Notes: generated by a model not told the origin, from the letters alone. Counted from the first letter of the stretch, positions 28,136 through 63,600 are shown. The stretch is DNA of 64,000 nucleotides from Cyanidioschyzon merolae (GCA_000091205.1 AP006501.2), one strand, 5' to 3'. A program made the numbers and translations.

Positions 28136-28786
28136 GTAATCCTTCTATTGGGCAAACATATTTTTGTTTGCCTATCTCCCCTCCCCCTCTTCCTTTTCGA
28201 TATATGCTCTTCTTCACTCGTTAGTCGGCAAGAACAGAAACGTTTATGTGTTTTTCCTGCAGCCCGTAATGAAGGCCCTCCACCATCCCCGACTTCCATG
28301 TCCATACCTCTCCCTTGTATTTTTCATTTCTTCAAATGAACGTACTTCGAACACATCTGCTATAAACAGCGAATAAGCGTTTGATGATACGCTTCTTGAG
28401 ATGGAACCTAAATGAATCGAAAGAGTAGAGGAGCCAGACGGGTATGAGGTCGAAACTAATCTGAAACAATTTAGTATAAAATTTGCAACTGCGGTACGCT
28501 GGACCCCCGCGATCGCTATGAAGCGTTCCCCGAAATCATTTTCATACCAGTAATTCTCTTACTTTAACCAGAGGCCAGACTTGGCGCGGTACGAGATTCT
28601 CAGGCTCTTCCTCTAAGTTTCTCAGTGGAACAGGGACCGACGGCGTCACTGTTGCTGTTGCGGAAGAGTCCGAGCTCGTGCTTCGTCTGTGGCTTTCGGA
28701 CGCGAAACACTTGTTGCTAACAGGCAGCTCACACACACGCACAGGAGCGTACCAGTGCTCCGCGACGTACGGTGATACTCGACTGC

Positions 28787-35203: not shown

Positions 35204-36393
35204 ATTGTTTGACTCGGAATAATGAATTCTGAAACACCTGCATCAGCACGCCCTGTTTGTTTTTTCTACGGGTATTCAAGAGGAGTGTATCTTGCACACC
35301 GGAGAAAGGTCGCCGAACGACCTTATGTCGTCACTGCTTCCTCATGAGAAAGCCCGCTTTACTAGTGCACGGCAGACATTCTCCGGACAGCCTCGCTTCA
35401 CACACGAACAAGGCTCTCTGCAAAAAGAAGCCCTTTACAGCAATGCAGACCCGTCCCGGACTCCGAGCGCCCTCGCGCCCCCATCACTGGCATCGGGGTA
35501 CGACGGGCACCAGGCGGCACACCGGCATGTAGAGTGACGGTGCAAGGACCGTTCTCACCGGCCTGCGTAGCGTATCCAGCAGAGGCGCACGCCTTCTCGG
35601 CTTTATTCAGAGGTCGTCCGTGAGCGTCCAGACGTCTCATGCGGACGCTCTTCGGCATGTATGCATGAGACTGCGCTGGGCGGTCGCCAATGGTTTCGGT
35701 TGTACGCAGACAAGACGGGTGCGTTCCCCAAACGGCTCAGTGACGTGGGAAAGGAAACGACTGAGCAGTCGCGTCGTCCGGTGGGGAGCCCCATCGAGCG
35801 GCACCCGACGCGGCGCACGAGGCCTGTGATCCCGCTTCATCGACCGGAGCTTCCCGCGGGAGCAAGCATCGACGCTGCACTGTGCCCATCGATGCGTTCA
35901 GGGCGTTATGCAAGCGGCACCAGCACGGGCACACGCTGAGGCGGGCACAGAAGAAGAGCGCGAAACATGCGCGCTCGGATGCACCGGATGGTAAGCGATA
36001 AGCAGCGTGCACGTCAGACGCAGAGCCAATCGCAAGTAAGCGGCTCGATATCGCGTGATCCAGCAAGCAACCATGCGCGCAAGCACTCTCTGCATCACGA
36101 CTTTAATGCCTCGAGCGACATCCGCGAATGTCCGGTACTTCCAGAGCATCCAGTGAGTATTACGTCGAGCGAACCTTGCGGCAATCGTTTGGTACCCAGT
36201 GGGCGCATTCTGCTGCAATGCTGCGGACATCCGCCAAACAGAATACGAATCCATGGGAGAGCGGCATGTTTTGCCTTGGCGGATCACGGCACTGGTGTGG
36301 TGCTGCTCAGCAATGCGGAAAGCATTGAGCGCGGTACGGATACTCTGGGGACGATTTGCGTTGGCAATATCTGAAAGACAATAATGTTTCCAT
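35204..36393 (+). repeat. 1.19-kb direct repeat, copy B (partner 31138-32327)
   Basis: See copy A. The 2.9-kb spacer carries the RimM-like and MRG genes. Confidence 0.8.
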
Positions 36394-38860: not shown

Positions 38861-38984
38861 GGCTTGATCGTCACCAGTTGCTACCAGTACGCACTGTTGT
38901 TCGCCAAACGATCGAGAGGCGACGTCGATGAGCGCGTCAGCATCTGGCAATCGCGCCGACGCGCTCGAGTCGGTGACTTTTTTC

Positions 38985-39338
38985 GCTCACCAAACGTTTA
39001 TGTTGTACCTGGATCCCTTATCGCGGGACGAGAACTGGCTATCGGGAAAGCGCCCATCGTGATACGCCTCACCCTCAAGTTCCATTCCTTACAATTCCTT
39101 TCGGATGTACTGGTCGTTTCATGGGTTGTATCGAGCATCGAGTGCCCGTCGTGCTGCATCCACCTTGGCGCCTAGACAGCTGGTGCAGATGCACCTTAGA
39201 GACAGAACGGCTTTGCTGTACCACTGGGGGCTTCGGCTCGAGATGTGGTGCACCTGACACGGATTCGGAGTCCATCATCATGCTGGGGGCCTGGAAACTG
39301 CGCTGAAAGAGCTACCGTCTGCGGCAGCTCGAAGCGAC
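38985..39338 (+). repeat. conserved structured module, copy 2
   Basis: Near-identical to 8287-8640. Confidence 0.6.
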
Positions 39339-42308
39339 ATGCCGGGAGTCCACTGCGACCAGGGCGACGCCCAGACGCAGCCTAACTGCTGCTCCTAGTC
39401 CCAGAGTCGACTGCGTTGCGGACGAGGTGTTCAGGTCGCACCACTGCACTAGGCACAGGTAAGGGCGTGAAGCACTAGTCTTGCAGACTCGTTCGGATTG
39501 CGGGCCGTTTCGCCCTGAAGGCAAACTTTCGGAAGTATGGAAACCTTTTCGCCCTTTTAACGGCTACCGTGGAATGGGACAGGAATCGTTACATCGTTTC
39601 TCGTGAATCGTTCGTCTCTTTCCTTTTTTTCTCCGAATAGCGCGGTCGATAAGCACACCTGCGAGATCACGCAGTCACGAGAGACGACGCGCATGTCGCC
39701 GATGAAGGGAAACGCGTTTCTAACTATGCTCTGACCTATTGCCCTACCGTACATGTTGTATTCGAATTACAGGCGTAGCGGAGTACAGTTTTTTGAGTTC
39801 AATCGCGTTTGAAACGTCAAGTAAGCATATTCAAGTGATGCTGTGCGGTGTATAGGAGAAGCGTTCAATGTGCGTTCTTTCGCAGAAAAAATTCTAAAAA
39901 AAGGAAAGTTATGAGAAAGCAAGTCGACGATCGCGGAGGCGCAGTGTCGCCGGCTGCCAGAAAAAGAACGAAAAACGGTGCCGAGCCCAGGAGCACAGGC
40001 AAAGACGATGAAGCAGAAGCGGGAGGCCCTACGTCAAAGGCCGCGGGAAAGACAACAGTACGACGAGACGGTGGTGAAAGCGTACCTTCGTAAACATATC
40101 AAGGATGCCTACAAGGAAAAGTTGCGAGAGGCCATCAGAAACCGTGTCGAGTCGTACTCCACGAGTACGAAGAAGGCTTCGTCAGGACTGATGCATATGG
40201 TGAACGAGATGCACGACAACGCGACGGACACCAGAACAGTCGAGGTTCCGGGGGAATTTTTCAACAAGACCTTTGCTCGTCACCTGATGGTCGGCACAGG
40301 GGAGCCGTCGACAAACAATGAGCGAGTGCACGCCTTCCACGAAAACTTCGCGGGATTCGGCTTCGAAGGTGCATCGATACAAGGGTTACGGGGATATTCA
40401 CATCTACGGGCCGATCGAGTACCTCGCGAACCTGAGGAACCATTTGACCATGAACCTCGAACGTTTCATGATACGCGCCGTGTTTGCGCTCTACCGGGGC
40501 ATCTCTCGCGGGGAAGAGATGGGCCATCTTCGCTGCCATCACCAACGATCGTCAGCATGAACAGGCAATAGAATTTGTCGACAAGATGACATCACGCAGG
40601 AGCATGAATGAAGCATATGTGATCGGTGCAGCTATTCAAGAGCGTCGTGGTAACACGGAGGTAGGGGGTTGGATAGATACTTCACCTCGCACTGAAAAAA
40701 TATCACAAAAAGTAAGAAAAGTAAAATGCGCATAATCGGAGAACGCTGGCCCAAGTAAACGTTTTGTCCATGGAAAAAAGAGCATCGTGAAGTCTTGGGG
40801 CTGGCCAACCCGACAGAAGACGTGTCAGATATGAAAAAAGTGAGAAAAGATGGTACCCCCGCATCCTGCGCTACTTCGTGTTTCTGGACCGAGAACTCGA
40901 ACGCAAGGCGGAGATGGTGCTGGGTGTGTGGAAAAATGAAGAGTCGCGGAGACGGAACGCTTTCCCAATGGGGAAGTGCTTCAACGTGGTTCCAATGAGC
41001 AACATCAAGTCACATTTTGTGACTATCGACCAAGGCGTCCACTACGGCAACATGAGTGAGATCAGTCCGGTGTTCGGTGTCAGCAGGGAGGAGTTCACCG
41101 GTGAAAATCGGGAGACGTACCGGAAGAGTCTCTTCGGTTTCAAACGTCTCAAAGTGAGCAAGCAGAAGGTATTCACGGGGATGATCGGAACCGATGGCGT
41201 AGCCACGTGTGTACGCTATCGGAGGTTTGAAGGCGGATTGTCCAGTTCGGCCTTCGATATCGCCCGTAACGAAGCATGAAGAAAACAGGGAGGAGGATCC
41301 TGCCACACAGAAAGTGCAGGATAACGACTTTGTCGTTGACGCGACGAAGCGTGAAGATGAGATGGAGGCGGGTCCTGCTACGCAGAAAGTGCAGGATAAC
41401 GACTTTGTCGTTAGTGCGGATCCCGGGAACACAAATATCATAACCATCGCAGTACCCAAGCGTGCGGAAGATGGTATCAACGGCAACCTACGTCAGACGG
41501 CCCTGCGAGTTTTGAGGTTCTCGAGAGCGGGATGCTATCGAGAATCCGGTATGATCAATGTGAGGAAGAAAATTGAGACACGGAATGCAGGAATGAAGGA
41601 TCTCCTGGAAGCTTTGCGCGGAGTAACGAGCAGAGGAGCAGGCTTTGAAGCTTTTCCGATATTCATGGAAGGTCGCGTTGCTCATTGGGATGCGCTGCTG
41701 GAGGAGTATACAAAGCCCCGGTGGGCTCGTCTGCGTATGAATCTGTACGGTGGTAAGCAGCGGGCATTCGCCAAATTTTTCAGTCAGTTGAGTGCCTTGA
41801 AGGAGGACGAGAGCCAGAGGCTGGTAGTGGCATACGGAGCAGGGCGTCCACAAAAGGGTGCACACCAGCTCCGTCGACGAGAACGTACAAAGCGTGTGCA
41901 CGGCGCTTTGTAATGATACCGATTGATGAGCTCCGAACGTCCTATACACACCACGAACTGGGGTACACACTTGAGACGGTCGACATGGAAAAGTGCCAGC
42001 GGAGTCCTGAAGATATGAAAAAGTATGGAGCGCTAACGGAGGAGCAAATGGACAGGAGGGCGAAAGTTCGTGGACTACTCGCATTAGTAAGTACAATCAA
42101 TGGCAAGAAACGCATGGAAATTGTTAACCGCGACTTTAACGCGGCTACCAATATAAGGAGGTGCGCGGTGATGGAGAGAAGACCTCCGTACTTGACAAGA
42201 GGGAATTTCGTAGGGAAACCTCTCGAGGTGGAATTATACGAGAAAAAGTTGAAACCGGTAGTAGGTGGCCGGTCCAAAAAGAATGTGAGGCATCTGCACG
42301 TCGACTGG
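38985..42308 (+). mobile_element. Fanzor/TnpB-like element, copy 2 (more intact than copy 1)
   Basis: Same structure as copy 1: 5' module, NLS-like N-terminus, Ruv[18 protein letters not shown] near 41404-41451, and NRDFNAATNI near 42126-42155. Its left end is about 125 bp upstream of the 6PGDH ATG, and its right end about 150 bp upstream of the isoamylase ATG. Confidence 0.65.
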
Positions 42309-42344
42309 AGGCGCATTGTCGAAAGCGCGCCGCGCTCCCGTTAA
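39911..42344 (+). pseudogene. Fanzor1-like TnpB-family nuclease gene, copy 2. It has about 3 frame breaks and no internal stop in the 41209-41913 segment; either a recent pseudogene or intron-interrupted
   Basis: ORFs 39848-40093, 39978-40571, 40878-41279, 41209-41913 and 41913-42344. The C-terminal segment reads MIPIDELRTSYTHHELGYTLETVDMEKC...GKKRMEIVNRDFNAATNIRRCAV. HHELGY here versus HHELGC in copy 1. Confidence 0.55.
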
Positions 42345-42455
42345 GCGCCAGTGCGCAGAAGAATTTCCTTCGGTTTCGAGGTATATTGAGAAGGGTCGCG
42401 TTCGTTCTGTGTAGAAAGCTGGACTGTGGCGACTCTCTCGGTCAGTTTTAAAGTT

Positions 42456-45371
42456 ATGCATCGAGTACGCTCCCGTGCGTCGTTCTCTAACCGCTCTAGT
42501 GAAGACCTCGTTCAGGTGCCGCCGGGTCTTGAGTTGGACGAAGAGGAGCTCGCGCTCCTGGAGCAACAGCGCCAGCTCGAGAACGCCTTAGCACGACACG
42601 AGCACGGCAATGTTCCCCGATCTCTTTCTCGACGCATCCTGGACTATATGGTCCAGAGCAGCGACGGCGCTGATCTGAGAACGAATCAGTCAATTCTGGG
42701 CACGGAGTCGAGGGCGTTTCCGGAATGGAGCACGTTTCAGCGCCCGGTAGCACGGAAGGGTCCACGATACGACGAGCTTCGACTGGGCGAGCTACTTGTA
42801 CGACGTGGTCACCCGTTGCCGTACGGCGTGAGCCTGAGCCCGGAGGGCACGAATTTCGCTATTTTCACAGATGAGGAGGAGCATGTGGCCCTGATCCTTT
42901 ATCCGGCCAAGTCGCGGCGTCAGCTAAGGCACGAGCGTTTGCAGTCTGCAGCTGCTGCATCTATCGAAAGCGCCACGCCTGTGACCTCGAATACTGAGAA
43001 GTCCGCACCCAAGACAGACTCTCACAGTGGCGAGCATGTCATGGACAAACAAACCGAAACTGCACCACCCAGCGACGCATCGCAAGAGACGGGTGCGAGA
43101 GAAAGTTCCGAGAGCACGCCCGCTAGGACAGAGTCTGCTGCTTCTGCGCTGTTGCGCAGGAATCGGGCGCCGTTTATCGTTCGCGAGAGCAGCACGGACG
43201 ACGAGGACCGCTTTGAAGACGTCCGTTCGAACGCTGGTAGCACCGGCGGAAGCACACCGCGAGCGATGAGCGAAGGCCTCGAAGATCCCAGTAACAACGA
43301 TGCGGTGATGACCACGAGCGCGCTCCAGAGCAGCACAAGGCAAGCAAAGTCGGTACTGGCTACCGCACAAATTTTACCGCATCAGAGCGGACTGCTCTTC
43401 CCGATGGATTGGTTTTTACCGGTCCCAAGTATTGACGACGCAAAACCTCTAATTATCGAACTTGATCCTGTCATCCATCGAACAGGCCATGTTTGGCACG
43501 TACAGATCGCCCCAAATGTGGAACATTATGCCTATGCATGGCGCATCGGCGATCGACCAACGCGCTGGGGCTCAAACATCGTCCTCGATCCATACGCTAA
43601 ATGCGTTTTCTCTCCACCGAGTGCGGATTTCAACCGCCCACCGGGACCTTATCGGCCGATTTGTGGTGTTCCCGCTATTGGAGAACTCGATTTCGACTGG
43701 GATGGCGTCCTTCCTCCACGGTATCCGTTTAAGGACTTGATCATCTATGAGCTGCATGTGAGAGGTCTCACAAAGCAGACTACTTCGCCCTATGCGGGTA
43801 CCTACCTGGGCGTCATTGAAAAGATACCGTACTTGAAGCAACTCGGTATCAATGCAGTTGAATTGATGCCTTGCGCCGAATTCAACGAGACCGAATGGGA
43901 CATGCGAAATCCGAGCACCGGCGAACGATTGTGTCAGTTCTGGGGCTACTCACCGATCTCTTTTTTTGCGCCCATGAATCGTTATGCGATGCAGGGCTTT
44001 ACCTCGGCTGTGCGGGAATTCAAAACCATGGTTCGCGAGCTGCATCGCCACGGCATCGAGGTCATCCTTGATGTGGTTTTCAACCACACCGGGGAGTTTG
44101 GAGACGACGGACCGCCGCCCCTCTTTTACCACTTCAAAGGCCTCGCGCTGAGTACTTATTATATTCTGGATAGGAAGAATCAGTTTGCAAACTATAGCGG
44201 GTGTGGCAATTCGCTCAGTGCGAATCACGTTGTCACTGCGGAGTTCATCCATGAGTGTGTTCGGTACTGGGCTCTGGAGATGGGTGTCGACGGCTTTCGC
44301 TTTGACTTGGCTGCAGTGATGTGTCGAGACCCGCAAGGTCAGCCCATGGCGAGTCCGCCGGTAATCGAGCGGCTCAGCAAAGATCCCTGCTTACGGCACT
44401 TGAAACTGATCGCAGAACCATGGGATCTGGGTCAGTACCTGGTCGGACATTTTCCACATTACGGGTGCTGGGCGGAGTGGAATGGTCGCTTTCGAGACAC
44501 GGTACGGCGTTTCATTAAGGGAGATCCGCATCTGATCGGTGACTTTGCAACCCGTCTATGCGGCTCAGAGGATCTCTACGCGAACGGACGACGTCCGTGG
44601 CACTCCATCAACTTTGTCACCGCTCATGATGGATTCACCCTCTACGACCTGGTTTCCTACGCCGAAAAACATAACTGGGATAATGGTGAGGAAAACCAGG
44701 ACGGTGAAAGCCACAACAATAGCTGGAACTGCGGCTTCGAAGGCGACGGGACCCCGAATCCGAACATTTTCTTCCTGCGGCAGAAGCAGATGCGCAACTT
44801 TCTGGTAGCGTTGCTGATATCGACGGGTACCCCAATGGTGCTTATGGGTGATGAGTATGGCCATACACGTCGCGGAAATAATAACGCCTGGTGCCAGGAC
44901 AACGAGCTGAACTACATGGATTGGGATAAGGTTGCTCGCGATGAACGGGGTCTGGTTCGGTTCACGCGCCTCATGATCCTGTTCCGGCGGGTGAACACCT
45001 TCCTCTGTCGTCAGAACTTCGTCACCAGACACGACGTGAGCTGGATCCATGCCGACTGGAGTAGTGCCTACAACTTCCTGGTGATGAGAATCATCGATCC
45101 CGGAAACGATGACTTGCTGGTGGGGTTTAATGCCGGTCCCGAGCGGCGCACGGTCACTGTACCACCGCTGTCGAGCGATCGCCAGTGGCTCCGCATCGTG
45201 GACACCAATCTGGCTCCGCCGTTGGATTTCTGTAACGGAGATAATCCAACCAAGATCTACGGCACCTACGTCATGCAACCCTGGAGTTCGATTATTCTCC
45301 AGAGCCACCGCCGCAGCGTGCTCATCCAGAGCTTGGAAGAACACCTTCGCGGACGCGAAGCAGCCTCCTAG
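42456..45371 (+). CDS. isoamylase-type starch/glycogen debranching enzyme (GH13 with N-terminal CBM48)
   Basis: GHPLPYGVSLSPEGTNFAIFT (CBM48), GYSPISFFAP, VILDVVFNHTGE, and VDGFRFDLAAVM (catalytic region). The ORF opens with GTG; first ATG at 42456. Confidence 0.85.
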   Translation: MHRVRSRASFSNRSSEDLVQVPPGLELDEEELALLEQQRQLENALARHEHGNVPRSLSRRILDYMVQSSDGADLRTNQSILGTESRAFPEWSTFQRPVARKGPRYDELRLGELLVRRGHPLPYGVSLSPEGTNFAIFTDEEEHVALILYPAKSRRQLRHERLQSAAAASIESATPVTSNTEKSAPKTDSHSGEHVMDKQTETAPPSDASQETGARESSESTPARTESAASALLRRNRAPFIVRESSTDDEDRFEDVRSNAGSTGGSTPRAMSEGLEDPSNNDAVMTTSALQSSTRQAKSVLATAQILPHQSGLLFPMDWFLPVPSIDDAKPLIIELDPVIHRTGHVWHVQIAPNVEHYAYAWRIGDRPTRWGSNIVLDPYAKCVFSPPSADFNRPPGPYRPICGVPAIGELDFDWDGVLPPRYPFKDLIIYELHVRGLTKQTTSPYAGTYLGVIEKIPYLKQLGINAVELMPCAEFNETEWDMRNPSTGERLCQFWGYSPISFFAPMNRYAMQGFTSAVREFKTMVRELHRHGIEVILDVVFNHTGEFGDDGPPPLFYHFKGLALSTYYILDRKNQFANYSGCGNSLSANHVVTAEFIHECVRYWALEMGVDGFRFDLAAVMCRDPQGQPMASPPVIERLSKDPCLRHLKLIAEPWDLGQYLVGHFPHYGCWAEWNGRFRDTVRRFIKGDPHLIGDFATRLCGSEDLYANGRRPWHSINFVTAHDGFTLYDLVSYAEKHNWDNGEENQDGESHNNSWNCGFEGDGTPNPNIFFLRQKQMRNFLVALLISTGTPMVLMGDEYGHTRRGNNNAWCQDNELNYMDWDKVARDERGLVRFTRLMILFRRVNTFLCRQNFVTRHDVSWIHADWSSAYNFLVMRIIDPGNDDLLVGFNAGPERRTVTVPPLSSDRQWLRIVDTNLAPPLDFCNGDNPTKIYGTYVMQPWSSIILQSHRRSVLIQSLEEHLRGREAAS

Positions 45372-45798
45372 ACACTGTAAAATGTTGATGAAACCTCGCT
45401 GTGAAGTCGGATGGCTTGATTCAGGGAACAAATCCCTTGTACAGCGTCGCTGTCGATATCGAAGTGGTGCCTCATGATCCAGAAGCAGGAATGCAGCATC
45501 AGCGGACCGTTTCACGTGCCACCAACTACACTACGTGCACATGAGGCAGCTTTGTGGCGGGGGTTTTCCAGCGCCGTCCGCGATCGCTACCAACGGTATG
45601 CCTGCTGCGCACCGGTAAATACCAACGCAGTAGGCTCAGCTGTGTTCGCTATAGCAGTGGTACCTTTTTGGGCAGTATCATTGAGAAATTCCTGACCACG
45701 GTGAACGCGACGGCTGCGTGTCGCCGTGAAAGCGTCGTATATTTGGACAGTGCGAGTAGGAAACTCACGTGTGCAAAACGAGGTATATACGTATGGGA

Positions 45799-45907
45799 AT
45801 GCATGCATGCATGCATGCATGCAAAAACACGTGTCTATGCGAATGAAAGCACGCATGGTATCGAAGCTTTTCACGTATGTGAGTGCATGCATGCATGCAT
45901 GCATGCA
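45799..45907. repeat. paired (CATG)n/(TGCA)n microsatellite blocks in the convergent intergenic region
   Basis: gaatgcatgcatgcatgcatgcatgca and, about 60 bp on, gtgcatgcatgcatgcatgcatgcac seen directly between the isoamylase (+) and PWP2 (-) 3' ends. Confidence 0.8.
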
Positions 45908-46090
45908 CTCACAAACGCGTAGCCATAAACATAAAAACCAATAACACTGAGGTCTACATGATTTTACCGCAGCGGCTTCGAGGCTATCGGCAAGCGCAGC
46001 AAGTCGTAGCGGTATGCACATGGTACATAGCCACAAAGCGCGGTATCAGCACCGGCTGAGACGAGAGCTGCTTTCGCATGCCCTTCTCTC

Positions 46091-49835: not shown

Positions 49836-51404
49836 TTACTGCGCTGGTGCGGATGCCTCCTGAAAAGGCCAGCCGAATTGCTGGAACACCTGGGAGAAGC
49901 GAGCTCGAGCATCTCCAGATACCGCTATTGAGATATGCCCGTCCAAATTCAGACGCAAATCAACTAGATCAGTGAAGAGGATAGTCGACTGCAGCGGCTC
50001 CGAAATGAGCCCTTCATGTAATCTTGCCGTCTGCACGTTGCAGCGCCTCAACGACGCACACTGCAGCGTGAAACGCGCCGGCGGGGTCAGCTCCCGCGCC
50101 GGTGACGCTGTGCTCAGGTCTATTGCCCGATGCAACGCCTCTGCGGCGTGACGTGGGTTTCCCCAAGTGGAGCCCAGGGGGCACACCAGGAGTCGCAGCC
50201 GACTCGTCTGGTTATCATCATCAGGTGATGCTTGATTCGGTGCACTGCGGATCGCGTCTTCGGCAGGTAATCGTTCACAGGCGAGCGCCTCCACGAGTGC
50301 CCGTAGAAGCTGAACATCGGAACCGGAACCGTCATATGCTACCAAGATCACAGGCAACGTCGGACACTGCGATTCTGCAGATTCACCATGCAGGGAAGTA
50401 GCGAGGGCGAGACGCAATCCCTCGAGCCAGTCTGTCACGACCTGCACAAGTTGCGGTTTCCATGGATACGATTCTAATTCACGCAGAAATCTGCTGACAA
50501 GATTTGCACGAATCATGCCATCGAACCATCGGGAAGCATCCGTACCGAGAAGGAGCAAACGCACTGAAAGCAGTCGCTGCAGAGCAGCCTGTGCGGGATC
50601 TTGGCTCGCATGCCGGTGCTCCACATGCGCTATAGCAAGCTGCTGAACTTGATTCTTCGTCTTCTGCTTTCTACCGCATCGCTCATCCTCATCCCGATCT
50701 AAGTGCGTAAAGTCATCGAAAAGAGCGCTTTCCCGGCGCAGCAGCGGGTTGCGCTCGGTATCGCTCACTCGTCCGATCGAAGTGTAGCCCGCATCGTACA
50801 GACTACAGTACTCCAGGTGGAACGTCCGCAAAAAGCGCCAAACCGCCCGATATGACCAGTGCAGGATCGGATTCACGCGCAGAAACGAGGGCCATTCGGG
50901 GCTCGACGGGCTCAGATGCTCCTGGCTGGGTCCGTCCGGGTCTATCCAGCGCGTTCCCAGAAGAAAACAACGCACACGCGGACGTATCTCTGTTAAATAA
51001 GTCTTAAGACCATGAAAAATTCCCCCGGGTACTCGATCAAAAACCAGCTGGTCGGCGTAGCGGCGGGACCAGTCTGCCACAAACTCGAGCACTTCGGGAA
51101 ACTGCTCCTGAGGATCCGGTTCCTCAAAAAATACTGCTTGAATGTGTGGTGCCGGCTTGCGTTCTTTATATAGAGACTGAAAGGCTGCTCGTGTTAAATG
51201 GAAAACAACAGTGGCGTCCTTGCCTCCATTAAAACTCAAGGCAACCTCCTCCGGTTCAAAAATGCGCAGAACGCCACGCAGCAGTTGGAGCGAGCTGGTA
51301 ACCCCAGGAGCCAGATCGGGTGCGACCTGTTCGATGCACTCTAATTGTTTCCATAGAGGCTCTTCATTTTCTGTTTGACTATCATCTTTACCGACACCAA
51401 GCAT
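49836..51404 (-). CDS. FAD synthetase (FMN adenylyltransferase, PAPS-reductase-like fold) with about 250 extra C-terminal aa
   Basis: LSFNGGKDATVVFHL...LLGTRWIDPDGP...NPILHWSYRAVWRFLR matches the eukaryotic FAD1/PAPS-reductase-like domain. Real ATG start. Confidence 0.65.
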   Translation of the reverse strand: MLGVGKDDSQTENEEPLWKQLECIEQVAPDLAPGVTSSLQLLRGVLRIFEPEEVALSFNGGKDATVVFHLTRAAFQSLYKERKPAPHIQAVFFEEPDPQEQFPEVLEFVADWSRRYADQLVFDRVPGGIFHGLKTYLTEIRPRVRCFLLGTRWIDPDGPSQEHLSPSSPEWPSFLRVNPILHWSYRAVWRFLRTFHLEYCSLYDAGYTSIGRVSDTERNPLLRRESALFDDFTHLDRDEDERCGRKQKTKNQVQQLAIAHVEHRHASQDPAQAALQRLLSVRLLLLGTDASRWFDGMIRANLVSRFLRELESYPWKPQLVQVVTDWLEGLRLALATSLHGESAESQCPTLPVILVAYDGSGSDVQLLRALVEALACERLPAEDAIRSAPNQASPDDDNQTSRLRLLVCPLGSTWGNPRHAAEALHRAIDLSTASPARELTPPARFTLQCASLRRCNVQTARLHEGLISEPLQSTILFTDLVDLRLNLDGHISIAVSGDARARFSQVFQQFGWPFQEASAPAQ

Positions 51405-51555
51405 ACGGCTGTTGCCCTGCGCGTCCTATTGTACGTTCCCAGGGCGACACGTCCCGCGAACCCCGCTGGCTCACAGAAGCAGAAACCGGAGGGGTGCGCT
51501 CCACGCTGCCGGATCCGCCTCCGCGTCGAGCACATCGCTGCGTTTTTGCTCAGTT

Positions 51556-51835
51556 TTACAGAATGTTTCCATGGACTAGGGATACCAGATTGCGGGATGG
51601 ATATTGGCATTCGGGAGTGTGCCCATCATGATGCAACCTATGCTCAAGTTCCATGATGCATACTTTTTCTCGGGGGTGTACTGGTCGATTTGAATGTTGT
51701 ATCATGCGGCGAGTACCTGCCTTGCTGCAGCCGCTATACCGCCTATACCGCTGGTGTGGATGCAACCTAGAGACAGAACAGTTTTGCTGTATCGCAGAGG
51801 GCTTCGACTCGAGAATGTAAACTTAACCTTCTCAA
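51556..51835 (+). repeat. conserved structured module, copy 3, directly abutting the 3' end of a reverse-strand Fanzor fragment
   Basis: Aligns over about 280 bp with 8287-8640 (ctcaagttccat ... ggtgtggatgcaacctagagacagaacag ... ggcttcgactcgag). It lies about 150 bp upstream of the FAD synthetase ATG. Confidence 0.6.
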
Positions 51836-52260
51836 AGGCGCCTCTCGGCCTTTTTCGACCGGCCACCTGCTATCGGATTGAGTTTCTTTCTGTGCATATC
51901 GAGCCTGAGAGGCTGGCCCACAAAGCTGAATCGCATCAGCTCCTGGGGTCTCGTATCCAATACCGCACATGGTCTGATTTTGATGACGACGTTGAAGCCT
52001 CGATGCACAAACTCCATGCGTTTCTTTCCTCTGATGGAACGCAAAAGTGCTAGGATTCCGAGAACTCGCGACCTCTCTCCGATTCCAATCGCGCCATCGT
52101 CCCACAGGGCAAACTCCTTTTCTCGCCCATCTCCCTGTTCTTCTTCTTCTTCGTCACTTGCCCTTCTTCGCTCGATCGTCAGCGATGAGAGGTGTTTTCC
52201 CCTTTTTTCGTCTGCCAGCAATAACCACCAACCAGGATTCCCGACTTTTATGTCCATATC
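51836..52260 (-). pseudogene. degenerate Fanzor/TnpB C-terminal fragment (RuvC-III motif decayed: RDFNAATNI replaced by RGFNVVIKI)
   Basis: ORF 51832-52257 (-): ...LALLRSIRGKKRMEFVHRGFNVVIKIRPCAV...RKKLNPIAGGRSKKAERRL. This aligns with copy 1 LALVSTINGKKRMEIVNRDFNAATNIRRCAV...KKLKPVVGGRSKN. Nucleotide ggtggccggtcgaaaaagg matches ggtggccggtccaaaaa. Confidence 0.6.
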
Positions 52261-52679
52261 CTTCCCTTAGATTGTCACCTTCGTCAAAATGAACGCACTT
52301 TGCGTATATCTGCTATGAGCGGAGAATAGACCTTTGATGACACGCACTTGCAGGTTTTTTCATGGACAAAACGTTTACCTAGGCCAGCGTTCTCCGATTA
52401 TGCGCATTTTTCTTTTCTTACTTTTTTTGTGTTATTTTTCCAGTGCGCGGGAAAGTATCTGTCGAACCGCACGCACTTGCAGGTGGAACGCAATTGAGTT
52501 GAACGGTCATGAGCGCAGCACCTGGACGCCGCTTCCGCTGCGCTCCGCAGCCGCTGGCGATCGACGGCGGCTGCGGCGGCGGCCAAATGGCGAGCACAGC
52601 AGTCTCGTTGGCGTGAAGCGCGAGCATTTCTTCTCTCGAAGAGCTTTTGTTGGGAACGTTGTGCCCTTCCTGGACGGAC

Positions 52680-53858
52680 ATGAAAATGTTGTGTTTCCTA
52701 TATACAACACCGGGAGGCTTTTGCGCAAACACCGCGACTGATCTTTTCGTCTCAAACTGCACCGGACGGAGGCGTCACGCACCGCTTGCGCGTAGGTGCT
52801 GGAACGCGCATCACAGGCAGCCGCAAGCAACGCTGCTGGCGCGGCTGCGTCTTTCAGCAAATGAGGGCGACTTTCGACACGCCGACCAGGCACCGCTGGA
52901 ACAGTCTGTGACTCGCCCAGCGAGGCTGTCCAAGGCCGTTCTGGCCCTTGCGCTTGGTCTGTTCGGCGCTACACTCGGTGCGCTGAGTGCATACTCCGCG
53001 CCTAAGCGCTTGTCCATGGAGGGGTCGAACGCCGCGCTAGCCGTAAATCTTTCGTCGTTCCGGCGACGTCGTTCTGGTGTGGAAACCGTCCGGCTGGTTG
53101 CCGCGAAAAAGTCCGCCCCTGTGGAAAACCTCACACTGTACGACCCGGTCGGCGAGCAGATGGCCAGGAACCGTTTCATAGCCAGTATCGTTGTTGGGGT
53201 GACCGTCGCTGCCCTCTACCTCTACTCTACTGAACGTTGCAAAAGAGATAACGAGGAGGAAGAGAAACGCATTCGGGCTGAGGTGGCTCGTCTGGAGAAA
53301 TGGAAGTCGGAGTTCGTGGACGCACAACAAAGCAACGATGTGAATGACGAGGATCTCTTGGCCGCACTGCGTGAGCGTCTTCAGCAACAGCAGAAGGGAG
53401 GCAGCACCGATATTGCAGATCCTGATCAGCAGAAGCAAAATACGTCCGAGTCCGACGCTGACAACGACGACGACAACGACATCAAACTACGAAGAGGTGA
53501 CGATTCCCCCAGCGAGCATCCTGATTCCGACAAGCGCGGCGGGAAGCATGGACCATCCATGCCGCCTTCGACCGAGCAACCACGTGCTGGCTCCGGCGGA
53601 GCCGCAACACTCGATCGACCTGGAGCTGATCGGGGAAGACGGTCCAGTCGCGGACGCTCCATGGACAGTCGCAGTGGACGGCACAGCTCGAGCGACGATA
53701 AGAACCCCAACGCCAATGACGGTCGTGCGGGTAACGACTCCCAGCGGGACAGCACTGCGAATTGGGACCTCGAACGCGAGCGCCTTCGCAAACTCTTTAA
53801 CCTTGATAGTGGCAGTAGCGGCACCGGAAGCGACGATACTCGCAAAGGCGATCGCTAA
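52680..53858 (+). CDS. hypothetical membrane protein (two predicted TM helices, acidic/coiled C-terminal half)
   Basis: Long single-frame ORF with ALALGLFGATLGALSAY and FIASIVVGVTVAALYLY hydrophobic segments and EEEEKRIRAEVARLEKWK. No homolog recognised; the ORF opens with TTG and the true start is uncertain. Confidence 0.35.
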   Translation: MKMLCFLYTTPGGFCANTATDLFVSNCTGRRRHAPLARRCWNAHHRQPQATLLARLRLSANEGDFRHADQAPLEQSVTRPARLSKAVLALALGLFGATLGALSAYSAPKRLSMEGSNAALAVNLSSFRRRRSGVETVRLVAAKKSAPVENLTLYDPVGEQMARNRFIASIVVGVTVAALYLYSTERCKRDNEEEEKRIRAEVARLEKWKSEFVDAQQSNDVNDEDLLAALRERLQQQQKGGSTDIADPDQQKQNTSESDADNDDDNDIKLRRGDDSPSEHPDSDKRGGKHGPSMPPSTEQPRAGSGGAATLDRPGADRGRRSSRGRSMDSRSGRHSSSDDKNPNANDGRAGNDSQRDSTANWDLERERLRKLFNLDSGSSGTGSDDTRKGDR

Positions 53859-54002
53859 ACAACAGCATTTGGGACGAATTCGCGCTGCTGATCTGGACCG
53901 TTCCTGGGAAGCATACCATGCTCTGGACACGTTCGTGTCTAACACGGCATGAGCGCCTATGAGGCAGCGCATCGGTGTCCGCAGGAGACGTTGCACACAG
54001 TC

Positions 54003-54022
54003 TGTGTGTGTGTGTGTGTGTG
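54003..54022. repeat. (TG)n dinucleotide microsatellite
   Basis: tgtgtgtgtgtgtgtgtgtg seen directly. Confidence 0.8.
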
Positions 54023-54814
54023 CTTGCATATATTCGCCGGGTACCCGTTGACCAGTGCTCCGTTGGCTGCTTCGCTGGCGGGTCACGAAAGCGGGACAAG
54101 TGCTTGCTGCACGGATGCAGCGCCTGATCACCTCAAGAGTTTGACAAGAGATTCGTCGTAAATGTTGCTGCCACTGTATGGAAACAGACAGAGAGAGAGT
54201 TTACCCGCGTGTGCGAACGCGCCTCACGAATTCATGACGCATGATATCCGCTGGATTTTGTCTGGGGCCACAGCCCGTGCATCCTAAACAGGCTCTGATC
54301 GCAAGTGCACCGCAATACCGATTCCGCCAGTGAAACCGAAATGTCTTTTTGCTGGAAGCGGGCCAACGTATCAGCAATAGCAACAGCAGTACCAGTATGA
54401 GCTATTCCTTGACACATTTGACCCGCATGCCCGCGTTATAACAGGTAGCGAACACGGTAGTAAATGCTGCAGCGAGACGCAACTGGTGAACCGTCAGCGG
54501 GTATTGTCTTTCCATCACGGCTGACGAGCTTCCAGTGTCTCGCAATGAAAGCGGTGGTCGGACGCGACCGCGCGGCATCCGCATCGAAGCCTTTGTGGAG
54601 GGCGGCATGTCCGCCGTCACCGATAACCAGAATGATGCATCTACTGCGCCATTTATCGTTCATGTTTTGGAGACGGCAAACCGCCGATCCGCTCATTGGG
54701 TAAATGGACAGAGGAACGTTTTTCAGGGCGCTCGAATCTGCTCGGTCCGAGGCGTTGCTCGTGTAATGTCTCGTACGGCTCTGCGGGCATGTGAAGCGTC
54801 ACCCTGCGCATCCT

Positions 54815-55483
54815 TCAAGAGCGCTTAGAATGCGCATTCGTTACGACTTGAGCCGCCTCCGTAAAACCCTCTTGCGCCAACATGTCGAAGAGTTTGCGCA
54901 TACGGGCGCGGTTCGTGCCCATGTCAGACCGCCCAATGCGCGATGCACTACGAAAGTGGATCACGTGTGTTGCGTCATCCACGAGACATTCCACATCATC
55001 AACGAATCCCCAAAAACGAGTCTGAAACTCGGCATACAGATATTTGCCCGGTTTGTATGTTATGATCTTGCTGGTTTCCGGTCCAGGATATCGTTGAACC
55101 GCTTCGTACACCCGCTGCAGCGCCTGCAAGGCACCCATCGTCGATGGATAGCGCCACGGAGGCTCAAAACAACTCGTGTTCGGCATATCGCGACTAGAGA
55201 CGCAGTTCTGAGCGTTCGGCCGACAACGACTTACCGTGCCATGGCCAACCGTGGACGGGCGTGGCGCTCGCACAGCGAGTCCGTAACGCCGCGGTCCCCA
55301 TGAGTTTTCGCTTTGCTCGGCACCCCGGCTCTCAGGCGGCCAGAAAAGCAGGCCCAAAAGTGTCACGGCGCTAAGGCCAAGAATGTAGAGAAGGAACCGT
55401 CGCTCGCGCGACTTTCGTTGTACACTTCGTAGAACACGGTCTGAGGTGCGCGGCAGCGAGTCCACGCCCGGATGAGGCGCCAT
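54815..55483 (-). CDS. DUF1499-family protein
   Basis: C-terminal LYAEFQTRFWGFVDDVECLVDDATHVIHFRSASRIGRSDMGTNRARMRKL matches the DUF1499 signature (YAEF..FGFVDDVEF...FRSASR.G.SDFGVNR.R). The start was set to the in-frame ATG (MAPHPG), and a TM segment follows. Confidence 0.55.
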   Translation of the reverse strand: MAPHPGVDSLPRTSDRVLRSVQRKSRERRFLLYILGLSAVTLLGLLFWPPESRGAEQSENSWGPRRYGLAVRAPRPSTVGHGTVSRCRPNAQNCVSSRDMPNTSCFEPPWRYPSTMGALQALQRVYEAVQRYPGPETSKIITYKPGKYLYAEFQTRFWGFVDDVECLVDDATHVIHFRSASRIGRSDMGTNRARMRKLFDMLAQEGFTEAAQVVTNAHSKRS

Positions 55484-56319
55484 GAGCGGCTGGTTCTTGC
55501 TATTGGCGCTCGCCGAGAGCTCGGAGACAGCGTTTACCTTCGATTTTAGCGGCCGTACGTGCAACCGCCTTCCATGCTCCCCTGTACGAAAGCGCTGCCT
55601 CCGTAAACGCACACCGCTGCAACGTCTGCGCAGCGTTTGGCGCGAGCCGCTAGGCGAACCGTGCCGGCCCTTCCAGAAAAAACGTCCCGGAATCCCAAAG
55701 AGTATACCAGTCGTTCCAATGACGCTATTTAGAATTCGCTGAGTTGAAACGTTACCCGTGGACACGTCCAGTGTCTCCGTTCCGGAGCGAGTGATAGAAG
55801 CGCGCTTCGAGCAACGCAGTCGCCAGCGGAGGCACTGCATACAAAAGCTGCAATACAAAGGATTGTCTGCGATGCGCAATCGCCATGCGCTGTGGAGTCG
55901 TCACAGAGAAGGACAGGCACTGCCCATTTACTAATTGCGACTGTTCCAAATGAAGACAAGTCGCCAGGAACTAGCAACTAGATAACATTTCGTTCCACCT
56001 TCATGGTAAGCGTTGCAAAAGGGGAACTTTTTCCGTATTTTCGAAAGATTACCTTCGAGGCGGAAAGTCCCTCGCGCCAGACGAGTCTGCAGGGTTGGTG
56101 CTTGAAGCTATTCCCAGCGGCGGGTACAGTGCCGAGACCTCATTAGCTCGTCCACAACGCAGTTATTTTGGGACTTGGGGCGCCAAGGCTGCATCCAGGT
56201 ATTGGCTTGGTCGCAGTGGTCCCCTAACATATCGGTCCGTGCTGTCGCAAGCAGTATTTCTGGCTGCGCAGCTTGCAGGCTCCCAAATTGATGTTGAGTC
56301 CTGATTCTGTGACTTGTGA

Positions 56320-56620
56320 ACCATGACGCGAGTCGAAGCCCTCTGCGATACAGCAAAACTGTTCTGTCTCCATGTTGCATCCACACCAGCGGTATAGGCG
56401 GTATAGCGGCTGCAGCAAGGCAGGTACTCGGCGCATGATACAACATTCAAATCGACCAGTACACCCCCGAGAAAAAGTATGCATCATGGAACTTGAAAGT
56501 AGGTTGCATCATGATGGGCACACTCCCGAATGCCAATATCCATCCCGCAATCTGGTATCCCTACTCCATGGAAACATTCTGTCAACCAAAAGAATCGTCG
56601 TGCGGTCGATTGGCGCGCTG
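56320..56620 (-). repeat. conserved structured module, copy 4 (solo, inverted relative to copy 3, which lies 4.5 kb away)
   Basis: 56320-56620 is the reverse complement of 51556-51835 at about 95% identity. It ends exactly at the ctcgag motif with no adjacent Fanzor sequence. Confidence 0.6.
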
Positions 56621-57258: not shown

Positions 57259-58599
57259 ATGGACAGGCACTCGACAACACAACTGCCATACCTCTGCAAC
57301 TGGTGCTTGGGCCAGGTCTCTAATCAGGACCAAGCGGTATTTACTGACTGCGCATGCTTGTTTTGCTCTGGAACGTGTGCTTCCCAGTTGCGTCGGGGTC
57401 CGCTGTGTAGCGTCTGTGCGCAACCCGGTTGCCGCCTCTATCGCGTTGGAAAAGATGGGAGCGGCCTGCCGCTAACCCACCGACGGTGTCTATTCGCCAG
57501 CGCTGCGAGCCTTATCGATGAGATGCAGCGTGCACTCGCTTTTCGTGAAGCACAGCTCCAACGATTGCGGGAGCGCATCCTGGATCGAGGCGTCACCGAA
57601 GGGATGCGCTCGACAGCGCAAGCAGAGAAGCGTGCGCAGCGCTCGAGTCGTGCTCCAGAGGCCAGTGTATTTGCACTGGGGATGCCCGGGCATATCCATC
57701 AAATCCACGCTGCCGTGTCGCAAAACGGATCGAAAGACATCGCCCACTGGGAAGCGCAAGCCTCTACTGCCACGCCTATTTCCAGAGCGCAGCAGCAGCA
57801 GCAGCAGCAGCAGCGTGCAGCCCTGTCATGTGTGAGACGTAATGCAGCTGCGGAAAAAGCGGAAACGCTGCGTTCTGCGGATGTACGTTCCGCCGTGGCA
57901 GCACTCGAGCGAAGCACACAAGCATCCGGCGTATCGTCGTCGGTGCGGACGGTACGTTCGCAGCAAACGGTCCGCTCGTATGGCGACCGTTTGGAGCGTA
58001 TTCGAGAACAGATGCTGTATGGACCCTATCGGCGGCAGCTTCAGTCAGAAAGAACACCTCTGGTGCCGCCCGTGCCTCGTTCAGGAATTTCGTACATCGG
58101 CCGTGCGCGCCTTGGCCTGCCACCGGCTGGCGATCGACGCCAATCCGCTCTTCATCGAGCAAATATCCCTGGACTGGCCACCAAGCGCATATGGAAACAA
58201 CGTTCGGCTTCGGCTTCGAACTGGATGCATGCTCCCGGTTCGGCTGCTGTCCAAGCGTCTTCGTCAGGCGCGGGTTCTATTGTGTCAACGCACTGTCAGG
58301 GGTCCAGAGTTGTATCCTCCGAGGTACAGCGTGTACCGTCGGAGATCTCGACGATTCGCCCGACCGCATTGTCCATGAATCCATTGCACTGGTTGAACTG
58401 GAAGAGCGCTGATCGTCGACCGGCGAATGTGCAGCATCAGGCATACGAAGAAGAACAGCAACAGCAATCGCAACAGCAGGATGCATGTGCACAGTCCGTG
58501 CAGACCCCACGATCCGCCTCGAGCACAATTCGTAGCACCAAGCCATCACCGACATGCGAGCACCCATCTGCAGCGTATACCGCTCATCGTAGTCCGTAA
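57259..58599 (+). CDS. RING/zinc-finger-like protein with poly-Gln tract
   Basis: N-terminal Cys-rich block CNWCLGQ...CACLFCSGTCASQLRRGPLCSVCAQPGC, then QQQQQQQQ and low-complexity sequence. Real ATG start. The domain assignment is tentative. Confidence 0.45.
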   Translation: MDRHSTTQLPYLCNWCLGQVSNQDQAVFTDCACLFCSGTCASQLRRGPLCSVCAQPGCRLYRVGKDGSGLPLTHRRCLFASAASLIDEMQRALAFREAQLQRLRERILDRGVTEGMRSTAQAEKRAQRSSRAPEASVFALGMPGHIHQIHAAVSQNGSKDIAHWEAQASTATPISRAQQQQQQQQRAALSCVRRNAAAEKAETLRSADVRSAVAALERSTQASGVSSSVRTVRSQQTVRSYGDRLERIREQMLYGPYRRQLQSERTPLVPPVPRSGISYIGRARLGLPPAGDRRQSALHRANIPGLATKRIWKQRSASASNWMHAPGSAAVQASSSGAGSIVSTHCQGSRVVSSEVQRVPSEISTIRPTALSMNPLHWLNWKSADRRPANVQHQAYEEEQQQQSQQQDACAQSVQTPRSASSTIRSTKPSPTCEHPSAAYTAHRSP

Positions 58600-61409: not shown

Positions 61410-63189
61410 TCAGATAAAATGTCTATTTTGTCCAGAGAACGCAGTGAATGCCGGAACATCTGAACATGCACACCCTTTTTGATCGTATTTGCTGTTCTCG
61501 TAGGTATTCAACAGAAGGAATCTATTCTGTGAATTGGAGAAAAGTTGCGAATAGAGTTTATGCAACCGTCGCCAGCCGGCGTGAAAGAAGACTTTTCGAG
61601 TCAGTCATTCGACGGTTAGAAGCTGGTTAGGGCACGATCCTCATCGACCTTTTCCTAAGCGTCATGCACCCTGGGCAGAAGTTATCAAAGTATACGCATA
61701 GAAAAGAATCCTCTTGAATCCGCACGCTCTCTATGAAAAATCAGTAAAGATGCCAGAGGATGTAGAGCTTCTCTGGCTTTCATACAAACCGGAATAGATA
61801 CGGATAGCCGTTGAAAAATGCACGTTTCTGTGGAAGAACGTCGTGCGATATACCACACGCGATCGACGTGGCATCGACACGCGAACGCTTCGTATACCAA
61901 GGACAGGTGTTCGTTTCCATCGATGATATATTGTGTATTATAATTGGTAGATCCGTATATACGTACTCCAAGATAGGCAAGCGATCGTCCGTAAACAAAT
62001 GATCAGCGAGCATTCCAGCAACTTCTGCACCAGCGGCGATCCAGCGGGTACTCGCCTGGAAATCGCAAAAAGGGCAGGGTCGTTCCACACCTCATTCCTC
62101 GTAGAGGCACCCTGCGAGGTTTCTCTTTGTTGCATTCCTCCGTCCTGCTGTTGGACAACAAAGATTTCCACCACTCGTCAGCAGTCAAAGAGTACGCACC
62201 TGGCATTGTAGCTGAGCTGCACTTTATGCAAGCCTATTCTCCATAGTTCTTACCAGTTGAAGGCATCTTCTGTGGTTTCAAACGTCCTTTGTATGTTCAC
62301 AGATCAATAGACGAGCGTTTCGTATCCGCGGCACTGAAGCTCTCCAGTAAGCTAGTATCTGCATTTTGCAGCCCTGAACTTCTGTGTGGCTTGATCGCTC
62401 GTGCGCGCGACGGTACGGAAGCACCATCTCGATACCCTCCTCCGTTTCTGCGCTCAGTGTCGTACCCGACGATCAAGGGCGTTTTCCGGGCGATGACCCT
62501 GGCAAGCGCTCAGTCCAATATAGGTGCAAGCGTACGCTATTTCATTCGATAGAGGATTTGGGGAACGTGATGTTTTCCATGATGAGACAGGCGCCGAAAA
62601 CAAATTCCAGGCTAGAGATCAAGTCAAAAAGCTCGATCCCTCTACGCTTCCTCTACTGGGCGCAACCGCTGCGGTCACTAATGTCCGCGTCCCAGGCTCT
62701 TGTCCATGCAATCCGAAGAGATGAGAGCCCGTCACGGCCTATACTGTGCGAGGTACAATGGTGCTGTCGAAAGCCATGTGTCCTATGCCCCAAAATTAAG
62801 AAGGATTGGTCTATCGAACATAGGGACTAAGTTGACAAGAAAAATTCAGCAATCTTTTGGCATGAGCTTGTGAACCAGCTTTCAAAAGTCCGTATCGCGT
62901 TTTTCGTTCCTTCGTCACTCCAGTGGCAAGAATCGCTGCGCTCACGAGTTGCCTAGAAACAGCAAGATTGGAAACGTGAAGCATGCATCAATTGAGCACA
63001 CCATATGTATGGAATGGGCAAGCATAGAGGCTCTTACATGAGCGTTGGATCATGATATCGGTCATGTTCTGATCCTCTCTTGAGGGCGTCGGGAATCATC
63101 CTGATGCCGCTGACCTACGTCTTCGTGAAACGAGAACGGTTTCACGACCGTGGAGAGCAAATTCGGACTGAATCGTAGGGATGCCTCCC

Positions 63190-63600
63190 AGCCGTTTTTG
63201 ACCGGCTGCCATATTCTCGATCCAGTTTTTGTCCAGGTAAACTTCGAGCCAGGCAGACTGCCCCACAAAGTTACATCGCGTCAGCTACGCGGGTTTCGTC
63301 ATTAGTACCATAAATCGTCTCATGTGGATGATGTTCTTCAAGTCTAGGATCACAAACTCCATGCGTTCGTTGCATCTAGTTGAACTCACTAGTCCAAAGA
63401 TTCCTCGAACTCGAGCGCGCAGTGCCATTTGGTGCTCTGTCAGCTCTGCGCGCTTTTCTGTCGCAGAATCGCTCCGCCGGCTCTTCTCCATTTCGTTCCT
63501 CTGAAGTATACGCCCCAGTTCATCCATTAGATTTTCTCTTTCGTCAAGCGAACATACTTCCTCACGCTCTTAGGTCAGGAGTTTCCCAGAGGATCGAAAG
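63190..63600 (-). pseudogene. degenerate Fanzor/TnpB C-terminal fragment (zinc ligands and RuvC-III decayed)
   Basis: ORF 63285-63527 (-): MDELGRILQRNEMEKSRRSDSATEKRAELTEHQMALRARVRGIFGLVSSTRCNERMEFVILDLKNIIHM. This aligns with copy 1 HELGCTLETVDMEKCQRSPEDMKKYGALTEEQMDRRAKVRGLLALVSTINGKKRMEIVNRDFNAATNI. The 3' nucleotides ggcagccggtcaaaaacggctgggaggcatcc match the family terminus. Confidence 0.55.

Follow-up and report, generated by a model that had tools for sequence, protein, structure and literature searches.

CMe-1A is a repetitive element of Cyanidioschyzon merolae of about 3 kb that carries a Fanzor1 open reading frame (ORF) and is present in about 150 copies; its 5' 635 bp recur on their own as TE-N2_CMe, a solo element with a copy number of about 70 (Bao and Jurka 2013, Mob DNA 4:12). 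Both were described without terminal inverted repeats (TIRs) or target-site duplications, and their class was left undefined (Bao and Jurka 2013). The genome paper reported 253 'WSV486-like' interspersed repeats of 3.2 kb, making up about 5% of the C. merolae genome, and described them merely as randomly distributed (Nozaki et al. 2007). The WSV486-like repeats are the same repeats as CMe-1A and TE-N2_CMe. Here we analyze a 64,000-nucleotide stretch of C. merolae 10D chromosome 19, referred to as the window, which contains five copies of a repeated non-coding module. The module forms the 5' end of two 3323-bp Fanzor1 elements and is also found alone. It is the already described TE-N2_CMe, or the 5' end of CMe-1A, matched by description and not by consensus sequence.

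A preliminary description of the window had placed the module copies in 5' intergenic regions close to start codons and had drawn attention to two inverted copies around a block of genes. Our analysis indicates that the bias toward gene starts exceeds random expectation and that the inverted copies probably exchange sequence. As an overall explanation we consider it probable that the module is a known transposon unit with a promoter-proximal insertion preference and that the two inverted copies, copies 3 and 4, have been homogenized by gene conversion.

Module copies and their distance from start codons

Alignment of 8 to 12 copies defines the module as a non-coding unit of about 626 bp composed of two sub-units, A (about 265 bp) and B (about 360 bp). 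Sub-unit A opens with a T-rich leader, continues with TGACAGAAYGTTT and closes with the conserved core GGAGACAGAACGGCTTTGCCGTACC and a terminal CTCGAG, while sub-unit B ends in GTTGCTAGTT. Two solo copies of 626 bp (55969-56594) and 619 bp (locus L008) share the terminus GTTGCTAGTT; Fanzor-linked copies run on into the ORF region. The core of about 60 nt is far more conserved than the remainder of A, and its 20-nt pattern GAGACAGAACRGYTYTGCYG matches the window exactly five times, at 8504, 18736, 39199 and 51770 on the plus strand and at 56351 on the minus strand, with 0.10 matches expected by chance. Self-comparison of the window likewise shows that the first 570 bp or so of the 3323-bp elements recur at 56594-56030 on the minus strand with 69% identity, and about 260 bp recur at 51555-51814. 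The five copies are as follows.

8282-8910, plus strand: copy 1, A and B, about 629 bp; 5' end of Fanzor1 element 1, with the A end 317 bp from the ATG of the actin-related protein (ARP) gene
18510-19042, plus strand: copy 5, diverged (about 70% identity) and near full length; nhmmer E = 1e-79 and 1.5e-61; 396 bp from the RPS3a ATG
38977-39605, plus strand: copy 2, A and B; forms the 5' end of Fanzor1 element 2 and lies about 120 bp away from the 6PGDH ATG
51543-51814, plus strand: copy 3, A only with about 12 nt of T-rich leader; stops at the A/B boundary CTCGAG, 151 bp from the ATG of the FAD synthetase (FADS) gene
55969-56599, minus strand: copy 4, a complete solo module (A and B) of 626 bp plus T-rich leader

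ORFs found in separate copies use different frames, so that no coding capacity is apparent in the module. No TIRs were found inside the module and no target-site duplications are recognizable at its flanks, while the motif GACAGAAC recurs near both A ends in direct orientation. The label of miniature inverted-repeat transposable element was considered, as the module is short and non-coding, and rejected because it has no TIRs and the GACAGAAC repeats are direct instead.

The distances to the first ATGs of ARP, 6PGDH and FADS reproduce those given earlier, as does the distance of 154 bp between the 3' end of Fanzor element 2 and the isoamylase ATG. Copy 4 lies, as proposed, between the ATGs of a DUF1499 gene (55840) and a RING-like gene (57259), its B end 128 bp upstream of the co-oriented DUF1499 ATG and its A end 660 bp from the RING-like ATG. 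The copy near RPS3a is present, although its earlier distance of 590 bp has to be corrected to about 396 bp because only the conserved core had been recognized.

By synteny, the five window copies are assigned to separate insertions specific to the C. merolae lineage, since the corresponding regions of two relatives are module-free. In Cyanidiococcus yangmingshanensis, neither module nor Fanzor was found in the syntenic 21 kb (FADS 54% identical), where the genes TBC, RING-like, DUF1499, u386, FADS, WD40, isoamylase and 6PGDH have the same order and strands as in the window. In a second relative (GCA_041825655.1, RPS3a 89% identical), no module or Fanzor was found around ARP, RRM, RPS3a, Cpn10 and SfsA.

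As a null model, uniform insertion was simulated over the intergenic window DNA free of transposable elements (TEs), with all recognized repeats masked. Of the window spacers, 7 are divergent, 7 convergent and 4 tandem. Random points have a probability of 0.335 of lying no more than 400 bp from an ATG with its 5' end toward them, or 0.43 when spacers are weighted equally. All five window copies lie 70-395 bp from an ATG with its 5' end facing the insertion (P = 0.004 for uniform insertion, P = 0.015 with spacers weighted by number). For replication, we used a metagenome pattern scan, whose 39 hits were mostly the same loci in near-identical strains or chance matches and included 2 new module loci, together with contigs encoding Fanzor homologues. 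These sources provided 9 further independent copies of the module or of module-bearing Fanzor elements, 7 of which lie within 400 bp of an ATG with its 5' end facing the insertion. Combined, 12 of 14 copies fall within this distance compared with 34-43% expected (P = 9e-5 to 1.4e-3), and a conservative count of 9 out of 11 gives P = 0.0014 to 0.011.

The absence of the module from convergent spacers in the window is not significant alone (P = 0.18), with 1 of 14 copies in a convergent spacer overall (P = 0.05). Orientation in tandem spacers (4 vs 2) is not significant either (P = 0.34). A stricter rule, under which every A end would face a divergent gene start, was true of the first 9 copies and was rejected as it is broken by L046 and by a weak hit in L045. 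The promoter-proximal preference suggested in the preliminary description therefore stands in part: the bias exceeds the null and is replicated in unseen loci, but the sample is small and holds two exceptions. Overall, the module bias toward gene starts looks real but modest.

Many transposons in compact genomes favor promoter-proximal DNA, and the P element, Mutator, mPing/PIF, hAT and Tf1 of S. pombe integrate preferentially near promoters or open chromatin. On balance, we lean toward explaining the closeness of the module to start codons by a preference of the transposition machinery for inserting into promoter-proximal, probably nucleosome-poor DNA. Such a preference is likelier than survivorship because purifying selection should disfavor sites 70-400 bp upstream of ATGs relative to 3' regions.

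Probable sequence exchange between the inverted copies

Copies 3 (plus strand) and 4 (minus strand) bracket a 4.5-kb gene block in inverted orientation, as the preliminary description had observed. Self-comparison and BLAST delimit the inverted-repeat arms to 51555-51811 and 56329-56585, which comprise 257 nt each, are 97% complementary and are separated by 4517 nt. The two copies are thus 97% alike compared with about 70% among other copies. Eight sites separate them in 10D, and copy-3 alleles from other strains hold the copy-4 states at such sites in nested tracts, while one copy-4 allele bears a copy-3 state. Local divergence in copies 3 and 4 is several-fold over the background of 0.4-0.7% and is always toward the state of the partner. 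No further copies of the copy-3/copy-4 subtype were found in the metagenome pattern scan. Because the copy-3 alleles of other strains are copy-3/copy-4 mosaics, gene conversion best explains the 97% identity and would be its simplest reading. Non-crossover gene conversion, in a genome with very active homologous recombination, would hold the shared 257 nt at this level of identity. The mosaic alleles also lead us to infer that copies 3 and 4 represent two independent insertions into neighboring divergent promoter regions.

A similar pattern is found in Fanzor1 elements 1 and 2, which are located 30 kb apart. Eight sites are strain-specific yet common to both elements, while locus-specific differences are confined to the last 20 nt; weak family homology extends about 80 nt past the 99% tract. 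This indicates concerted evolution of the two elements by the same conversion process. Homogenized neighbors of this kind caution against taking high identity as evidence of recent transposition.

The preliminary description had further suggested that the inverted pair could mediate inversion of the intervening block, which is not borne out. Order and strands of FADS, u403, DUF1499, RING and TBC are identical in C. yangmingshanensis, where the region is module-free, and all contigs crossing copy 3 or copy 4, from at least two other metagenome samples, are collinear with the reference. As the resident genes retain their ancestral orientation, the block between copies 3 and 4 is not inverted relative to the ancestor.

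The general idea is, however, realized 35 kb away at a different repeat pair. Inverted repeats of 1352 bp at 14324-15675 and 19527-20878 (99.6% identical) enclose an interior (15676-19526) with Cpn10, RPS3a and module copy 5. The interior is inverted with respect to the reference in contigs from four samples (L063, L064, L065 and L067), while the 10D reference and one sample share the other orientation. A relative that does not contain the repeats (GCA_041825655.1) has the gene order of the four samples, from which it follows that 10D carries a derived, repeat-mediated inversion of the Cpn10-RPS3a segment. This inversion is polymorphic in nature. Copy 5 is located inside the inverting segment. 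At the same locus, contig L066 (1-2277, sample 3300050376) leaves the reference 126 bp before the RPS3a ATG, continues into an amidohydrolase-like ORF of 786 amino acids and does not contain copy 5, representing either a strain rearrangement or a chimeric assembly.

Fanzor elements and resident genes

Fanzor elements and related pieces in the window, apart from the module copies, are the following.

8285-11607, plus strand: Fanzor1 element 1, 99.1% identical to element 2, with weaker family homology to about 11690
38980-42302, plus strand: Fanzor1 element 2, 3323 bp, with family homology to about 42385
51831-52345, minus strand: Fanzor 3'-end remnant of a short family, comprising the last 75-80 or so codons including the RuvC-III motif 'NRDFNAA' plus about 270 nt upstream; tail-to-tail with copy 3
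52357-52483, plus strand: A' fragment corresponding to the first 100 nt or so of A, 88% identical to the reverse complement of the Fanzor-internal segments 9961-10084 and 40652-40777

The Fanzor ORFs of elements 1 and 2 are pseudogenes with frameshifts, and element 1 additionally contains an in-frame stop. No family was assigned by Pfam searches of the ORF pieces and of full-length homologues, and PDB searches using the Fanzor sequences singly or as a shallow profile returned no match. An AlphaFold model of the Fanzor protein reached a pLDDT of 35, was unusable and was not used for a fold search. In contrast to these searches, a profile built from distant full-length homologues (A6) matches the Fanzor1 structures 9CF0 from Parasitella (E = 7.7e-18) and 9CER from Guillardia (E = 5.4e-6), and the alignment to the solved structures spans the DPGR, DEFRT and NRD.NAA motifs. 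Profile similarity thus assigns the ORF pieces of the elements to the Fanzor1 family. Most Fanzor copies in the wider sample (L045, L046, L050 and L055) have no module, which indicates that the module belongs to a subfamily and not to all elements.

No TIR was found in elements 1 and 2, yet two loci show an inverted A behind the Fanzor 3' end, and the elements themselves contain an inverted A'. The internal A' carries a 28-nt T-rich insertion and lies on the minus strand of each element (9961-10084 and 40652-40777), where the ORF pieces leave a gap. The idea that A once served as a long TIR at the boundaries of an ancestral element was considered and rejected, as an inverted A comes after just 2 of about 15 Fanzor 3' ends. 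The composite of A and a reversed Fanzor 3' end seen at copy 3 recurs in the unlinked locus L040 with 67% identity. Short Fanzor 3'-end copies related to the remnant at 51831-52345 are found at 27874-28392 and 63189-63429 (both minus strand), L040 2480-2832 and L046 3514-3756. They represent a short repeat family of about 520 bp, formed by the final 75-80 or so Fanzor codons, the 3' tail and about 270 nt of unrelated upstream sequence, that is, stand-alone Fanzor right ends. Within the Fanzor ORF, a 75-bp unit is duplicated in tandem (10570-10717 and 41265-41412), and the number of these units varies among Fanzor homologues, stretching their alignment to 879 columns. Two direct repeats of 1190 bp (31138-32327 and 35204-36393, 98.7% identical) flank the RimM and MRG genes and are both located in convergent (3'-3') spacers. 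The second shows weak similarity to the Fanzor C-terminus at 35876-36182, so that these repeats may represent a very old or distant Fanzor-derived family.

In 8 of 11 loci, the Fanzor 3' end is followed at a distance of 0-330 bp by the ATG of a co-oriented host gene, while the other three Fanzor ends face the 3' end of a gene. The loci comprise 42302-42456 in the window as well as L041, L043, L045, L046, L052 and L058, and some of the gene starts are automatic calls that are possibly over-extended. Orientation by itself shows no significant bias (P = 0.11); the shortness of the distances, however, is striking. A guide RNA would be expected at Fanzor 3' ends.

The window DNA is gene-dense and intron-poor with a G+C content of about 55%. 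Its gene map (19 genes) was derived from ORFs in combination with Pfam, orthologues and a codon-usage score. C. merolae 10D proteins match the FADS and RPS3a ORFs with 100% identity, and Pfam and orthologue searches agree with all gene identities named in the preliminary description. Genes adjacent to the module copies and elements are listed here.

6556-7989, minus strand: actin-related protein (ARP) ORF, first ATG 7965
17305-18114, minus strand: RPS3a, ATG 18114
37364-38950, minus strand: 6PGDH ORF, first ATG 38860
42426-45371, plus strand: isoamylase ORF, first ATG 42456
49836-51404, minus strand: FAD synthetase (FADS), Pfam PAPS_reduct, ATG 51404; left neighbor of copy 3
52680-53858, plus strand: u403, host gene of unassigned function, 392 amino acids from the first ATG, coding score 0.09
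54815-55879, minus strand: DUF1499 host gene ORF (54815-55840 from the ATG), Pfam PF07386, E = 1.4e-27
57259-58599, plus strand: RING-like Cys-rich host ORF, ATG 57259, no Pfam match

For u403, tblastn detects an orthologue (49% identity, E = 2e-73) in the syntenic Cyanidiococcus region, where the called gene encodes 386 amino acids, and DUF1499 likewise has a syntenic orthologue there. The Cyanidiococcus orthologue of the RING-like ORF is located at L051 5852-4707 (33% identity, E = 6e-45). The divergent spacer between 6PGDH and isoamylase contains 186 bp of non-repeat DNA in C. merolae (38861-38976 and 42386-42455) vs 1170 bp in Cyanidiococcus (L051 18469-19639). The convergent spacer between isoamylase and WD40 contains (GCAT)n microsatellites in two blocks 84 bp apart (45788-45916), and metagenome contig L001 differs at this position.

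Alternative explanations and relation to known systems

A number of points weigh against the combined explanation of a promoter-proximal transposon unit with gene conversion between copies 3 and 4. The copy at L043 6671-6890 is located in a convergent spacer and that at L046 14312-14553 lies 1.25 kb from the next ATG, and other Fanzor-derived repeats occupy convergent spacers as well (31138-32327, 35204-36393 and L008 3973-4524). The 14 copies are few, some are not fully independent, they are old and fixed, and the pattern in the window was a post hoc observation. The null hinges on the ORF-based gene map and the TE masks, and large 'TE-free' spacers may conceal genes or old repeats. The module-free Fanzor copies count against it too, as does the origin of the mosaic alleles in short-read metagenome assemblies, which can blend near-identical repeats. 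Identity with the Repbase entries CMe-1A and TE-N2_CMe rests on their published description and not on a consensus alignment. Random insertion into intergenic DNA without targeting, with the pattern arising from short spacers, survivorship and chance in a compact intron-free genome, would fit the module-bearing TE-free spacers, which measure just 186-2040 bp so that any insertion is near some gene end, as well as the non-significant results for convergent spacers and for orientation in tandem spacers. We nevertheless regard it as rather unlikely, considering both the full and the conservative counts of copies within 400 bp of a facing ATG and the expectation that selection alone should favor 3' regions over positions 70-400 bp upstream of start codons. 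Proximity could also reflect co-option, with copies supplying promoter or upstream regulatory functions to host genes and being retained for that role. Non-TE DNA between Fanzor element 2 and the neighboring ATGs amounts to just 116 bp (6PGDH) and 70 bp (isoamylase) in a spacer of 1170 bp in Cyanidiococcus, and copy 4 precedes DUF1499 (by 128 bp) and L008a an ARMT1-like gene, each in the orientation of the gene, which is also how the module is placed relative to the Fanzor ORF. The strong conservation of the core of about 60 nt relative to the rest of A, the Fanzor 3' ends within 330 bp upstream of co-oriented host ATGs in 8 of 11 loci and the reported transcription of the repeats (Nozaki 2007) point in the same direction. 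However, conservation among paralogous copies reflects constraint on source elements and not on each inserted copy, about half of the C. merolae repeats bear the silencing mark H3K27me3 and are poorly expressed according to published data, and the orthologous genes function without the module in two related species, making co-option improbable. Only slightly less doubtful is a broader proposal in which CMe-1A/TE-N2_CMe would land upstream of start codons at distances of a few hundred bp or less, its two ends would become working promoters of flanking host genes and the A core, with its GACAGAAC repeat and hairpin, would serve as recognition or landing site. If true, the A module would drive or flank the divergent or co-oriented neighbor, with the Fanzor 3' end positioned 0-330 bp in front of a co-oriented gene; a family making up about 5% of the genome would have rewired many C. 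merolae promoters, and a landing site in the A core would also explain the recurrent junction of Fanzor 3' end and inverted A.

The two remaining alternatives are far less probable than those above. A structured non-coding RNA, such as the Fanzor guide (omega) RNA, might be suspected from the hairpin ACGGC-TTT-GCCGT in the conserved core, one pair of which covaries from G-C to A-U in 3 copies. Omega RNAs are produced at the right end of the transposon, where they overlap or follow the Fanzor stop codon (Saito 2023), whereas the module occupies the left (5') end and precedes the Fanzor ORF by about 370-1000 bp. No consensus fold is found: RNAalifold applied to 12 A copies gave -4.4 kcal/mol and 10 pairs in 308 columns, with a single 4-bp hairpin showing covariation, and neither Rfam at gathering thresholds nor a tRNA search returned a match anywhere in the window. 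An RNA function is consequently very improbable, and these predictions classify the module as non-coding and not a structured RNA. Copies 3 and 4 could alternatively be the inverted ends of a single composite element of about 5 kb, or of an invertible cassette carrying two genes. The length, identity and inverted orientation of the arms, the transposon-derived pieces just inside copy 3 and the inverted A after the Fanzor 3' end in two unlinked loci would agree with such an arrangement. Against it, module-free Cyanidiococcus likewise has u403 and DUF1499 between FADS and RING/TBC, with order and strands unchanged, all arm-crossing contigs from at least two samples are collinear with the reference, and copy 3 consists of A only while copy 4 comprises A and B. 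We give this arrangement hardly any credence and retain two independent insertions homogenized by gene conversion.

Compared with known systems, the module differs from TnpB/Fanzor omega RNAs in its location away from the right end and in its lack of a conserved secondary structure. Copies 3 and 4 resemble composite transposons and invertible segments in that inverted element copies surround a gene block, but the genes they enclose are ancestral and occupy the syntenic position in a relative without modules, and no inverted isomer was seen; the 1352-bp pair in the same window does behave as an invertible segment, unlike copies 3 and 4. The module would resemble promoter-targeting transposons in that its copies, in a small sample, appear concentrated in the few hundred bp that precede start codons of a gene-dense genome. 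It differs from them in that no transposase or tethering factor is known for its family and in that its preference is deduced from old fixed copies and not from new insertions. The closest match is CMe-1A/TE-N2_CMe, with the same host, an element of about 3.3 kb with a Fanzor1 ORF, a 5' portion of about 630 bp that is also found solo, and copies about 70-80% alike. The described lack of TIRs and target-site duplications may be shared as well, as neither was recognized at the window elements, but the inverted A behind the Fanzor 3' end in two loci and the internal inverted A' complicate this point. Nothing essential is different in the window elements, which are thus already catalogued and represent no new kind of system. 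To the known family the window adds the A/B sub-structure, A-only copies and the inverted A' inside the Fanzor element, as well as the bias toward 5' gene flanks and signs of gene conversion between neighboring copies. A Fanzor1-associated family making up about 5% of the genome of a model alga apparently sits preferentially in gene-upstream spacers. If confirmed genome-wide, this bias would bear on the target choice of Fanzor-bearing elements and would matter for C. merolae upstream regions used as promoters in strain engineering.

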